DNA from: Candidatus Harpocratesius repetitus
Lineage (GTDB): Archaea; Asgardarchaeota; Lokiarchaeia; Sigyniarchaeales; Promethearchaeaceae
Assembly: GCA_021498095.1 (NCBI GenBank)
Contig: JAIZWK010000001.1
Span: 3,270,001 to 3,302,000, forward strand
Length of the DNA stretch: 32,000 bases
Direction of reading: 5' to 3'
Below, in pieces: positions 1-12,547 of this stretch. The first letter of the stretch is position 1. Every line of letters begins with the position of its first letter. A program made the position numbers and the translations under genes. The notes below the pieces were generated by a model that worked only from the letters and a program-made list of their open reading frames with translations, searched no databases and was not told the origin of the DNA.

Positions 1-417
1 AATTGTCACTTGACGTTCACCCATAGCTTCTAATAAAGCAGCTTGAGTCTTTGGAGCCGTTCGGTTAATTTCATCAGCGAGAATGATATTACCAAACAAA
101 GGTCCTTTTCGAATTACGAAATCACCTTTAGATTGATCAAAAACCATACTCCCTGTACAATCACTGGGTAATAAATCTGGAGTAAATTGAATCCGATTGA
201 ACGAAATCCCCAGTGCTTCTGCAAAAGTTTTGGCAGTGACTGTTTTTGCTAAACCAGGGACACCTTCTAAAAGAACGTGTCCATTAGTTAATAACCCAAT
301 TAATAACATTTGAAGCACGTCACCCATACCAACAATGACTCTTGCGACTTCACTCATTACTTCTTGGGCAATTTCTCGAACAATGCCAACATCTGCTTCT
401 TCAAATACTTCTGTCAT
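1..417 (-). CDS. moxR: MoxR-family AAA+ ATPase, N-terminal part (runs off the window edge; absent from the ORF track)
   Basis: Manual translation of the minus strand gives [59 protein letters not shown]...[14 protein letters not shown]...[36 protein letters not shown]. These are the MoxR Walker A (GVPGLAKT), [12 protein letters not shown] and Walker B (DEINR) motifs. An in-frame ATG also lies at 435; 417 is preferred because AGGTAA precedes it. Confidence 0.96.
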
Positions 418-534
418 AATATTTACCTTCTTCATTGAGTTTTTTTACTTTTTTTGCTTATTACATATTTTTTTTTCATGTATTTCTTGTTTAATTATAA
501 AAAAAATTAAAATTTTGAATGTTTCGTTAAAATT

Positions 535-11400: not shown

Positions 11401-12547
11401 GATTATAAATAAAATCGGCACCAACAAAATCCACAATTGCCTGCATTTTTGCATATGTATTTGTTGCAGTAGTAAAAGCAGTATAACTTTCAAGTTGACT
11501 GGCTACTGTATTGAAATTTGTATGAGTCGATCGATAACTACTCCAAGTAATTGTCTGAGTACCATCAAAAGGTCCATTTAAACATCCTTCAACTTCAGTA
11601 TTTGTTGCAGTATAATCAGACATATCCAAACCTAAGCCTGTATAATAATTAGCAGAGGAATAATCATTATCATTATAAAGTAAATCATAAGTAAAATTGG
11701 TCATCTTAGTCATATCTTGAAGAGAAAAAGTTGATTCCGCCCATGCACCACCTAAATAGGATTGGCTTTTTAAACTAGGATTACTTATTGGAGTGATTGG
11801 ATCTGATTGCAAAGAGTTTGATAAAATACGCGGGCTTGGCGAATTTGTGTATAAAGTTGTAACAGTTTTATCAGTTACAATTGTTGGAACCTTAATATGA
11901 AATTTTTTATCTGCACTTGTTGGATCTTCGATTAATGTACCTGAACCACCAATTGAACCTTCAGTCCAGTCAAAAGTTGTTAAATCATATTGATCATATG
12001 CTTTTGATTTAAATAGAGTATCTTCATGATCGCTCCATGTATTCGAAGGGTTATTTCCTGCAGCAAAGAACATTGGTTTAGCCACTAATACAGCAACTAA
12101 TGCAGGATCATCAAATTGATCCAATAAATCACCTGAAAAACTATCTCCTGCTAAACTATCAAGTAGTGTCCCCAATTCATCATCATATGCATTTAAAAAT
12201 TCATCTGGAGTCATTTCTGCTTGTAGTAAGTAGTCACTTATATTTTCACCAAACATATTCTCCATTAATTCTAACTTTTCTTCTAACGACATATTGTTTA
12301 AAAGATCAGAATTTAATAAAGCATCAATGTAAGCGCTTGGATCAAAAGTTAATTCTACTTTAGTTACATCATCCCACGGTACAATTTCTACTTCATTTTG
12401 AGAACGATCTAATTTTCCTGCATTAGGATCGGTTAAAAGAGCAATAAATGTAGTGTTAAACATATAAACTCCAATTACAATTGATGTCAGAAATACTAAT
12501 TTAAATATATTCTTTGCATTGAATACTTTTGCTGTTCCCTTCGGCAT
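5459..12547 (-). CDS. Giant (2362 aa) N-terminally anchored surface protein with a transglutaminase-like domain (catalytic Cys/His absent) and tandem Ig-like repeats
   Basis: One N-terminal TM (LVFLTSIVIGVYMFNTTFIALL). TGase-like pattern LARLNGISSRYVSGF...WVEAFIP...GDWVAFD. Repeated G-x-P-V-x-G-A...TD-x-NG-Y-A-N-F-T units, dozens of N-x-S/T sequons, and no C-terminal anchor. Confidence 0.85.
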   Translation of the reverse strand: MPKGTAKVFNAKNIFKLVFLTSIVIGVYMFNTTFIALLTDPNAGKLDRSQNEVEIVPWDDVTKVELTFDPSAYIDALLNSDLLNNMSLEEKLELMENMFGENISDYLLQAEMTPDEFLNAYDDELGTLLDSLAGDSFSGDLLDQFDDPALVAVLVAKPMFFAAGNNPSNTWSDHEDTLFKSKAYDQYDLTTFDWTEGSIGGSGTLIEDPTSADKKFHIKVPTIVTDKTVTTLYTNSPSPRILSNSLQSDPITPISNPSLKSQSYLGGAWAESTFSLQDMTKMTNFTYDLLYNDNDYSSANYYTGLGLDMSDYTATNTEVEGCLNGPFDGTQTITWSSYRSTHTNFNTVASQLESYTAFTTATNTYAKMQAIVDFVGADFIYNPLGDARPPDGQDPLEWFCGSGESQYPFEFSSLIVALARLNGISSRYVSGFKYSDLISNTLGVTSFYDSNDGLTYYPYLVGNIYTWVEAFIPTSSSEGDWVAFDNRFIATPVIPQSPDDVSFNLQYNGGNDFYPDPAGYERYNEFDEAQSVDITLTYVFNDDPMGSQLITLYDVTYDQILDFGYTDTNGQITFTLNLDELIVGPHTLNISTEYYGVPIFNITVINILDDVQIFSNVSNSIIVSGPNTSQNQGISGYAYDPVLNKTVANVEVNFTGVKLPTVHEPIPTSFNPTPNGTVTGSDGAFSVSISIPGFISSDWGRQYEIFTNFYGVFDISADIAKFSSQYQSLFSSFPTRIPAHTAAGYTDAKNETFLMYNDEYYEYHFYMNSTRYAHNSSLPIYQDPVIYGSRTNLVLNFSASLWQGYNYSSGSQVQIFDITEGNRLVTSFTTDSQGYGSVLYQLNSDVDSDWTAGPHLLRMVWPTAPNTAETYFYVVIQDPLVVDQLSENFTGGTAGLPTKTNVYYLNNELGDPYDNFTIYGRVYDAGTGENISNYIIHYRVFDRNGKAWNVSFLQNGIFTEMVTNPSVGYSEQFNFFNLTAPSYSPFRTDVYFEGYFNLTSTYGWNNSWNDLWIPYFQGLSTANDSSDGTLEVMNPSSYTFDTFLNSQAISTWNSSTTVQQRQFGILDSLNFTAIFKDDGTPVANANVTLIDLNSSAQWNIQTNAQGAVEIIFNFGSGNITGVNKFLFNVSYDDGLFVSTNFTYIEVVFNETKSYNFDSQLNYTTYSLLAPYLSRQLGVDDSFHLSGVFEYVNGTKISGAPVNITDLSEPSVSRVFITDINGYYNWTLTFGFANSSGLHRYNISLDLPQGSYHVRFNHLIEIYFNETKNFAFTGFMNHSDFSTYGVVSADSGYTLLIDGELLLKGSGFQTATAILTDSLNGTSWTVSTDVNGYANFTVFFGSNIQTGLRTYNLTVRYVGSAFTVQFEHDLSVNFDPANFFTCTPWDNATGATVDSGDQMYVSLNVLHHGSAFNSGSANLTDTSNSSSTWVDSTFTNGNLTFLITFGSGLRVGTHSYLLNYTYTGNPYGYVYEFTYTVTNVNFDPSSFYSFPSPSTNNTPFVSGGQTVQFNTTFLHNGIVPEKPSSVNLIDYANRSMDQLQAVDGNGKSQFNLFFGPGIVTGEHNIKIYVNYTDNYGYNIYFEYTNIIINFQPTQGYRFRPWMNVTDNSWIGLDEPFHISGIFDYNGTGSYVGVSGANMTLTDLTEGTTLNSIITTGTGQGNFTVEFAAAGYILGWHQLKINVSYTDGAGYLVYFSHTYNIYFSPKGYTFDPWDSTGGSSVGTDDIIDISVTFAHYGTPIAGETVRLVDITNPSIDITDLTDGSGYANFTIEFAPGNITGWHNFSLTIGYTDAYGYTITNQTNVLIFFDNTKNYQVMHTDNISSSVGSDDTIDINVRFLSKTNPVAGAVIVLKDPAGDPITSGVTDINGWANFTLTFGPGNYTGLQTYTIDATFDGTTFTVNKQDSFSVNFDYTKNYHLDITDDFTGSDYGAGDSLQINSQFLSLTNPVSGASITITDSVEGLLHSGNTDANGWVNYTVNFGPGWNPGAHVITVAVSFNGVTYTFTTSSNYNFNFNETKNYNYAPYDNIGGVTQTFGDSIKISCAFTLKGSGVSGATVVLTDLSNGTTWNLLTDGNGYANFTISFNGNVYPGGHHYQLDLSYDGTSYTITAQSDHWVFYQNPLTLSASLSGYSSNMTLYQTAPFTFGVTGNLVDSSNPAHGHLDATLSVYLYSGANDVSHLFSYSYTVNYYHDTTDGAYDISLSITSAPYRGQFTVVVGFNGTLDVDLGSVGYTPDAIPVNSSDNAYFWVYQNTNIEYNYTIDNSALPFPLNQQTGIIIGGSDITIFGNLTDSDGNRLANQNITLILYNTSGDEVARFTVTTDAQGHFVFLIEDCPYDLDEILLVFDGNDSLYLNETENGGPIS
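6195..9440 (-). repeat. About 10 tandem intragenic ~105-aa Ig-like repeats (diverged at DNA level)
   Basis: Recurrent consensus F-x3-G-x-P-V-x-G-A-x-V-x-L-x-D...TD-x-NG-[YW]-A-N-F-T-x-x-F-G-x-G-x3-G-x-H-x-Y, each unit ending in F-[ND]-x4-Y. Examples: FLSKTNPVAGAVIVLKD...TDINGWANFTLTFGPG, FLSLTNPVSGASITITD...TDANGWVNYTVNFGPG, FTLKGSGVSGATVVLTD...TDGNGYANFTISF. Boundaries are approximate. Confidence 0.85.

Follow-up and report, generated by a model that had tools for sequence, protein, structure and literature searches.

The first 12,547 nucleotides (nt) of the window analysed here, a 32,000-nt stretch (G000:C1:3270001-3302000) of the 4.36-Mb single-contig genome of Candidatus Harpocratesius repetitus (G000), hold genes one to five of a membrane module of seven genes, conserved across Asgard archaea. 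The locus is the Asgard variant of the known MoxR-DUF58-TgpA / arCOG01314 (DUF4350) / Rv3689-95 module, described in 2012 and 2015, an identification in which we have high confidence. We place the host in the Lokiarchaeales, to which counts for "the order" refer below, those for "the phylum" referring to Asgard archaea; G-codes (G002, G010 and so on) label the genomes of relatives, and L-codes label loci, L003 spanning the sequence before window position 1. The explanation that we favour as a whole, in which the module would serve as an envelope-assembly and maintenance chaperone and not in enzymatic cross-linking, has in our estimation a probability of about 0.6.

Gene layout and its conservation

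The five genes all lie on the minus strand, as do the further features of the module given below, and are read in the same direction through window positions 1-12547. They encode, in this order, a giant protein of 2362 amino acids (aa) (5459..12547) with an N-terminal transmembrane segment (TM), an acidic linker, a transglutaminase (TGase)-like domain and immunoglobulin (Ig)-like repeats; a 596-aa protein (3606..5396) with an N-terminal signal or anchor, a predicted Ig-like and glycosylated ectodomain, a TM and a cytoplasmic DUF4129-like domain; a soluble DUF4129-like protein of 121 aa (3194..3559), for which the ATG at 3550 is the likely start; an 832-aa polytopic protein with a DUF4350/GIFT domain (535..3033); and the first 145 aa of a MoxR AAA+ ATPase (1..435), which is cut by the window edge. 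They are separated by gaps of 62, 46, 160 and 99 nt, respectively. The first-pass annotation of this DNA had proposed five co-oriented genes with these architectures, and the open reading frames (ORFs) do lie at these positions, with Pfam, hydropathy and orthologue evidence in agreement. It had also called the apparatus complete, and this did not hold. The full moxR gene encodes 325 aa and has its 3' end 542 nt before window position 1; after a further 7.4 kb downstream, the same strand carries a DUF58 gene, followed by a gene for a conserved 518-aa membrane protein. Because both belong to the module and both lie outside the window, the set in 1-12547 is incomplete, and it is incomplete here because mobile DNA moved the last two genes 7.4 kb away. 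The DUF58/vWA partner that had been expected near moxR was, however, found, and it is the sole DUF58 of the genome.

A TATA-like TTTATA, noticed by eye, stands about 30 nt before the ATG of the giant gene. Two same-strand ORFs further upstream (311 and 592 aa; window 12781-15644) have no counterpart beside the cluster in any relative examined; since the genes upstream of the giant gene are not conserved, the module starts at the giant gene and both ORFs are outside it. As to the host, which had been taken for an Asgard-like archaeon, the relatives recovered bear the name Promethearchaeota, and a protein from Candidatus Harpocratesius sp. shares 97% identity with the 518-aa protein; Wu et al. 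assign this genus to the family Prometheoarchaeaceae (PMC8813620).

It is the order of the genes, conserved across the phylum, that supports a MoxR-linked membrane and surface module. The gene for the DUF4350-like 832-aa protein occurs as a single orthologue in every one of the order's 31 genomes, and the protein's ectodomain and tail are matched in 138 of the 151 phylum genomes sampled (75 of the 78 high-quality ones). Of the 14 relatives whose gene order was read, most keep it. In G010 (a complete genome of 6.04 Mb), G019, G026 and G016, from three families of the order, the seven genes form an unbroken row that runs giant, Ig/TM/DUF4129, free DUF4129, DUF4350, MoxR, DUF58 and 518-aa; in these four genomes, and in all six other Asgard families sampled, DUF58 stands directly beside moxR. 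In G004 and G022, moxR does not directly follow the DUF4350 gene. Conserved synteny in relatives, on which the earlier proposal depended, is thus found across both order and phylum.

One could nevertheless conceive of functionally unrelated neighbours that merely share a strand, a view to which the breaks in the row in G000 and some relatives lend some colour. However, the same order recurs across at least ten families (four in the order and six others) and partly in bacteria, and components that are separate here are fused in other lineages. Given this conserved order and these fusions, we consider such an explanation very unlikely.

Identity between the proteins of G000 and G010 falls from 87% for MoxR and 77% for DUF58, through 62% for the 121-aa, 53% for the 832-aa and 51% for the 518-aa protein, to 37% for the 596-aa protein and 31% for the giant, whose length varies from 1045 to 2362 aa. 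This gradient is in keeping with a conserved cytoplasmic motor that carries exposed, rapidly evolving parts.

The giant protein and its fused homologues

The giant protein starts with a basic cytoplasmic tip of 13 aa, followed by a membrane anchor evident from hydropathy (aa 14-35; 12443..12508). Its TGase-like domain (aa 360-485; 11093..11470) matches Transglut_core in Pfam at 42.7 bits against a cut-off of 23 (E 7.5e-11), and bMG3-like and CarboxypepD_reg Ig-like domains are matched as well. About 13 Ig-like repeats of ~105 aa are detectable in all, ten of which form a contiguous bMG3-like array (aa 1040-2111; 6215..9430) in a jackhmmer self-search and repeat alignment; because these repeats are only 19-43% identical to one another, the array is old. 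No TM, sorting signal or DUF4129 domain was seen at the C-terminus by sequence and hydropathy, and TgpA_N (DUF3488) gave no match to the protein at E <= 0.1, its only TM being the N-terminal one. N-x-S/T sequons number 76, against 39.5 expected from composition, and reach a density of 3.3-4.0 per 100 aa in the ectodomains of the giant and the 596-aa protein; the latter ectodomain (401 aa) has 16, against 10.7 expected. The MoxR, DUF58, 518-aa and 121-aa proteins have at most about 0.8 per 100 aa. Together with hydropathy, this distribution fits the topology that had been suggested for the locus, with a stalk outside and helical domains in the cytoplasm beside a cytoplasmic ATPase.

All six other Asgard families (G065, G031, G057, G092, G036 and G040) have a tight five-gene row instead, in which a large fused protein of 1169-2261 aa precedes a DUF4350 protein of 431-483 aa, MoxR, DUF58 and a homologue of the 518-aa protein. 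Along the fused proteins, profiles built from the N-terminus of the giant, from the 596-aa protein and from the 121-aa protein match one after the other, and the layout is N-terminal TM, TGase, Ig repeats, TM and DUF4129, that is, TgpA-like on one polypeptide. Pfam finds Transglut_core, Ig-like domains and a C-terminal DUF4129 in the five that were scanned (the last above cut-off in two), with partial matches to TgpA_N that are sub-threshold in four of the five. By its domain order, the fused form is a TgpA architecture with Ig repeats inserted. Since a single fused protein stands in for genes one to three in each of the six other families sampled, the Lokiarchaeales form is most simply a gene fission, and a five-gene row with a fused TgpA-like protein is the most economical reading of the ancestral Asgard state. 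On this reading, the changes in Lokiarchaeales would comprise the splitting of the TgpA-like gene, an extra free DUF4129 copy, the loss of the catalytic Cys and His, and a DUF4350 protein with a polytopic N-terminus.

The loss of catalytic residues is apparent from an alignment that sets seven Lokiarchaeales orthologues beside four intact G000 paralogues, also compared with the six fused homologues. In the giant's core, Pro408 occupies the position of the Cys and Tyr465 that of the His, Asp485 alone being kept. The catalytic Cys and His are missing from all seven Lokiarchaeales orthologues, which carry Pro, Ser or Trp at the nucleophile position and Tyr or Asp at the His position, and which mostly keep the Asp. 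Among the fused homologues, the Cys-His-Asp triad is intact in G065 and G036; the Cys is replaced by Ser in G031 and G057 and by Gly in G040, and G092 lacks both Cys and His. (The G036 protein has two tandem TGase-like cores.) With the triad lost or altered in most of these proteins, TGase catalysis is dispensable in many Asgard lineages. The TGase-like domain of the giant is, as judged from these residues, predicted to be catalytically dead and capable of binding at most, which agrees with the earlier suggestion that the module does not work by cross-linking chemistry. A phmmer search of the TGase region against PDB sequences returned only chance matches to antibodies.

These residues also bear on the model of Zhang and Aravind, who in 2012 described a strict MoxR-vWA-TGL operon and proposed membrane-proximal, ATP-dependent proteolysis, with vWA recruiting the substrate, MoxR unfolding it and a TGase-like peptidase cleaving it (PMC3495828). 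Retention of the triad in two Asgard families would be in keeping with such a scheme. In Lokiarchaeales, however, the model is contradicted because the nucleophile is missing, the His being gone too; moreover, the TGase-like domain lies in a sequon-rich, predicted extracellular region and would be separated from MoxR by the membrane, just as the domain of Pseudomonas aeruginosa TgpA is periplasmic. We therefore give proteolysis next to no weight for the present locus.

That periplasmic TGase domain is active in vitro, strong evidence of essentiality has been presented for TgpA, and its gene is predicted to form one operon with PA2875 and PA2874 (Milani et al., PMC3507681). What the Harpocratesius locus shares with PA2875-PA2874-PA2873 is a MoxR, a DUF58/vWA protein and a TGase-like core that a membrane protein displays outside the cytoplasm, and the TgpA_N - Transglut_core - DUF4129 order of the TgpA family is recovered in the fused Asgard homologues. 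The differences are nevertheless considerable. Here the gene is split in two, with a free DUF4129 copy besides, and the TM and DUF4129 domain reside on the 596-aa protein and not on the giant; the giant has one TM where TgpA has a six-TM N-terminal domain; an insertion of Ig-like repeats adds some 1,800 aa to it; its catalytic Cys and His have been lost, in contrast to TgpA, an apparently essential protein whose domain shows TGase activity in vitro; and moxR and DUF58 are 7.4 kb apart in G000.

The sub-threshold DUF4129 call on the 121-aa protein is corroborated by its orthologues and by the fused homologues. The layout of the 596-aa protein as Ig-like ectodomain, TM (aa 431-449 by hydropathy) and DUF4129 is backed by hydropathy and by the nearest ESM Atlas clusters. 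Its cytoplasmic C-terminus has no Pfam match to DUF4129 and is 33-41% identical to the 121-aa protein, which itself matches DUF4129 (PF13559) below threshold, at 15.2 bits against a cut-off of 24.8. The same weak match recurs in seven of nine orthologues of the 121-aa protein (best E 7.5e-4), and a profile of these orthologues matches the C-termini of the fused Asgard homologues at E 1e-12 to 1e-21, two of which exceed the DUF4129 cut-off at 37.8 and 33.7 bits. In a tree of the DUF4129-like domains the fused copies fall together on one branch (84/83), with the timing of the free copy not resolved. A complex prediction of DUF58 (46-442) with the 121-aa protein, run without controls, scored 0.00, which is no evidence either way.

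The DUF4350 protein, the motor and the interrupted junction

In the 832-aa protein, a polytopic N-terminal extension of about 8-9 TMs (aa 1-336; 2026..3033), delimited by hydropathy and orthologue lengths, is followed by a predicted extracellular DUF4350/GIFT-fold domain (aa 337-680; 994..2025; model pLDDT 76) and by a weak C-terminal TM with a conserved cytoplasmic helical tail, recognised by alignment and modelling, that bears the motif FRTSSFFAxKIxWYR (aa 681-832; 538..993). Pfam places DUF4350 below threshold (27.0 bits against a cut-off of 30.4; profile positions 2-53 only). This call is corroborated by the predicted structure: in Foldseek searches, Mycobacterium tuberculosis Rv3691 (DUF4350) was matched at E 4.5e-8, the N-terminal domain of IFT52 at E 5e-6 and OST48/Wbp1 at E 1e-5 to 1e-3, Rv3691 being the top Swiss-Prot structural match of the 832-aa protein model, tail included. 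A weak hydrophobic helix follows the GIFT domain, and the region of ~8-9 TMs takes the place of an N-terminal signal peptide. For this region no usable ESM Atlas match and no relatives were found. DUF4350 proteins measure 431-483 aa in the other Asgard families, ~580-590 aa in family f3 of the order, 729 aa in G004 and 832-847 aa in this genus, G010 and G011, and the multi-TM N-terminus is a lineage-specific extension that has been growing within the order. We also considered the helical tail as a third DUF4129-like copy, but hhalign against the 121-aa family returned a probability of 0.3%, and the idea is unsupported by sequence.

GIFT domains are known from GldG, IFT52 and OST48/Wbp1 (Beatson and Ponting 2004, cited in PMC7226087). 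The 832-aa ectodomain shares their fold, and in OST48/Wbp1, too, one C-terminal TM comes after a luminal domain; the TM-score reaches 0.74 (normalised to the target) for the N-terminal domain of IFT52. The likeness is at the level of the fold only, with 9-13% identity and a TM-score of ~0.35-0.4 to OST48, and the cluster is linked to no OST genes.

Parallels are also found in two described gene sets. Around arCOG01314, Makarova, Galperin and Koonin predicted in 2015 a secretion or membrane-remodelling complex of DUF4350, MoxR, Ig-vWA and Ig-like membrane proteins (PMC5898192, section 3.2, Table 2). Our locus resembles it in having a DUF4350 protein with an extracellular flavodoxin/GldG-like domain and C-terminal TM, a MoxR, an Ig+vWA protein (DUF58) and Ig-like surface proteins. 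It differs in its TGase-like and DUF4129 components, which the description of that complex does not list, in the polytopic N-terminus of DUF4350 in place of a signal peptide, and in the placement of DUF58, which we predict to be cytoplasmic and not secreted. The second set is that of mycobacteria, where homologues of Rv3689, Rv3691-93, Rv3694c and Rv3695 change expression together in M. chelonae (PMC8191103). The order DUF4350 (Rv3691), MoxR (Rv3692) and DUF58 (Rv3693) is that of our row, whereas no giant Ig/TGase protein is listed there, and the accessory membrane proteins are the SpoIIM-like Rv3694c and the RDD protein Rv3695 instead of the 518-aa orphan family.

The MoxR fragment in the window already matches AAA_3 at E 1e-41; the full protein matches AAA_3 (PF07726) over its full length, 1-131, at E 1.4e-64 and AAA_lid_2 (PF17863) at E 2.6e-25, and both Walker A (GVPGLAKT) and Walker B (ILADE) read as intact in the translation. 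G000 has a single strong AAA_3 MoxR (218 bits; the next best reaches 69). The 442-aa DUF58 protein (PF01882, 105 bits against a cut-off of 23.4) comprises an N-terminal TM hairpin, an Ig-like domain that also matches TRAP_beta and BatD, and a vWA domain whose MIDAS motif DxSxS reads D245-S-S-E-S249; D245 and D344 are invariant in 13 orthologues. The TM-hairpin topology and the scarcity of sequons lead us to place it in the cytoplasm and not among secreted proteins. Its Ig-like domain (L003:8722-10050) exceeds the Pfam cut-off for TRAP_beta, at 34.4 bits against 22.4, so that DUF58 and the 832-aa ectodomain both resemble accessory subunits of the eukaryotic endoplasmic reticulum (ER) translocon and OST (TRAP_beta, and OST48/Wbp1 across eukaryotes), a resemblance that is probably at fold or clan level only (GIFT, E-set-like). 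The 518-aa protein is an orphan family: it has no Pfam match and nothing at E <= 0.001 in the PDB, and among AFDB clusters it finds only uncharacterised relatives. In its model (pLDDT 74), which is polytopic and consists of helices throughout, aa 229-369 form a long, charged helical hairpin.

In G000, a DEAD-box gene and a 5.3-kb element part moxR from DUF58 and the 518-aa gene. The former, a helicase gene on the plus strand and hence opposite to the module (L003:15894-17213), has a counterpart at the same MoxR/DUF58 junction of the congeneric G002, in opposite orientation (L042:4550-5923). Three different ORFs occupy this junction in G011, and the junction seems to have received insertions repeatedly in the family. 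The 5.3-kb element is a block of ~5.3 kb (L003:10201-15508 = G000:C1:3262201-3267508), about 2.5-7.8 kb before window position 1, edged by imperfect inverted repeats (31 nt at 81% and 19 nt at 89% complementarity). Five ORFs lie within it, one for a serine-recombinase transposase (phrog_6620) and four orphans of 402 aa (with TMs), 137, 451 and 316 aa. PADLOC and PHROGs recognised only the serine recombinase among these five inserted ORFs, and no known defence system. The recombinase is present in G000 in about 19 copies or fragments, several of them 90-93% identical, a multicopy habit that fits the 'repetitus' character of Ca. Harpocratesius. A degraded fragment of this same recombinase gene, with stops, lies also within the window (16782-16892), where it coincides with a segment between 16-bp inverted repeats. 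We considered whether the inserted element was an aloposon and rejected this, aloposons targeting tRNA and carrying genes for 3,000-6,000 aa (PMC8813620).

A chaperone model and its alternatives

The mechanism that we propose for this trans-envelope machine, as we infer it to be, is tentative, and we would put it somewhat short of even odds. In it, the module would form a constitutive cell-surface complex whose outer face is a heavily N-glycosylated stalk of Ig repeats. Near the membrane, the stalk would hold the non-catalytic and perhaps peptide-binding TGase-like domain beside the GIFT-fold domain, which may bind sugars. On the other side of the membrane, small helical domains could serve as cytoplasmic handles; they would be supplied by the DUF4129 copies, by the 832-aa protein with its tail and by the 518-aa protein with its coiled-coil loop. 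The handles would be engaged by the vWA adaptor of the membrane-tethered DUF58, and a MoxR hexamer would spend ATP to assemble, insert or remodel the surface complex. The giant itself could be either a free filament or part of an arch still formed with the 596-aa protein, its former C-terminal half. MoxR is the closest prokaryotic relative of the AAA+ domains of dynein and midasin.

Conceivably, the same parts could work as a surface sensor: when the Ig-repeat antenna met a virus, an epibiont or a partner cell, the TM and DUF4129 segments would pass the signal to MoxR-vWA, and a cytoplasmic response would follow. This comes close to the mechanosensing role suggested in the first-pass annotation, whose reading of the architecture is reasonable but whose proposals of physical contacts, a filament, adhesion and mechanosensing reach further than the evidence. 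A precedent is Esr of oral Actinobacteria, a cluster that unites a filamentous Ig-repeat protein, MoxR, vWA and a transglutaminase retaining the filament on the surface, that senses epibionts via kinase and FHA outputs, and that is required for responses to Patescibacteria (bioRxiv 10.64898/2026.09.08.750141). With Esr and the related bifidobacterial PFNA cluster our locus has in common an Ig/FN3-repeat filamentous surface protein encoded with MoxR, vWA/DUF58 and a transglutaminase; the giant evolves fast, as an antenna might, and MoxR passes the bpMoxR model at 37.6 bits. Yet its AAA_3 score (216 bits) is far above this and its vWA partner is a classical DUF58. Esr has a beta-propeller head, a Ser/Thr kinase, a phosphatase and FHA outputs, none of which is found here: no beta-propeller, kinase, phosphatase, FHA or effector domain was detected by Pfam in the seven proteins, and none is conserved beside the row in relatives. 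Likewise, the separate transglutaminase EsrD is proposed to link the filament covalently, while here a dead TGase-like domain resides within the filament-type protein. Finally, near-universal occurrence, with one locus in each of the 31 genomes of the order, is the pattern of a housekeeping system and not of a patchy conflict system. Owing to this near-universality, the single locus per genome and the lack of output genes, we prefer the chaperone model and hold a sensor to be unlikely.

A dedicated secretion system, in which the DUF4350, 518-aa and DUF58 proteins form a conduit or platform that exports and anchors Ig-like proteins while MoxR powers or gates it, seems somewhat less likely still. 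It is in the spirit of the 2015 arCOG01314 model; the GIFT fold is common to GldG of the gliding/type IX secretion apparatus; and the cargo-like giant is encoded within the same row. However, the giant and the 596-aa protein carry, at their N-termini, ordinary hydrophobic anchors or signals compatible with Sec, comparison of the 518-aa protein with AFDB clusters and the PDB brought up no channel-like fold, and the MoxR family is established to consist of chaperone-like remodellers, not translocases (Snider and Houry 2006, cited in PMC3495828). We again prefer the chaperone model, because in most Asgard families the supposed cargo is a membrane protein with two TMs, and because its anchors are of an ordinary kind.

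Several points nonetheless count against the chaperone model and the evolutionary scenario that goes with it. The row is interrupted or dispersed in G000, G011, G004 and G022, so that tight operon coupling is not obligatory. TATA-like and T-rich stretches occur inside the 160-nt and 99-nt gaps, although the genome is AT-rich and the internal gaps are for this reason uninformative on promoters and terminators. Two Asgard families retain an intact TGase triad; catalysis may thus matter ancestrally, and the Lokiarchaeales form may have changed its function. The tree of DUF4129-like domains (115 aa) resolves no single duplication, with free and Ig-TM copies not forming two clean clades. Lastly, that the giant and its neighbours arose by fission and not the fused protein by fusion would be the most economical direction, resting as it does on parsimony over an unrooted sampling.

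It is conceivable, if improbable, that fission freed the distal end of a stalk of ~18 domains, turning it into a true, glycosylated filament of the cell surface, perhaps identical with the densities that Asgard cells display, that would be coupled mechanically via the DUF4129 handles and DUF58 to the MoxR motor and would serve contact with syntrophic partners. By its domain count, such a stalk would when fully extended be tens of nanometres long. Were this true, the GIFT (OST48-like) and TRAP-beta-like domains would become candidate precursors of ER translocon accessory subunits.

Taken together, these findings add detail to a known module and do not amount to a novel type of system. Few prokaryotic membrane gene sets without a known function are as widespread as the MoxR-DUF58-TgpA/DUF4350 module, and Asgard archaea keep it almost universally, with their largest and fastest-evolving predicted glycoproteins attached to it. 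The same genes occur in the cultured Lokiarchaeum ossiferum and Prometheoarchaeum syntrophicum, which makes their localisation and expression testable. Set beside the families with an intact triad, the Lokiarchaeales form, split, apparently dead and repeat-expanded, offers a natural comparison of the catalytic and structural roles of the module.

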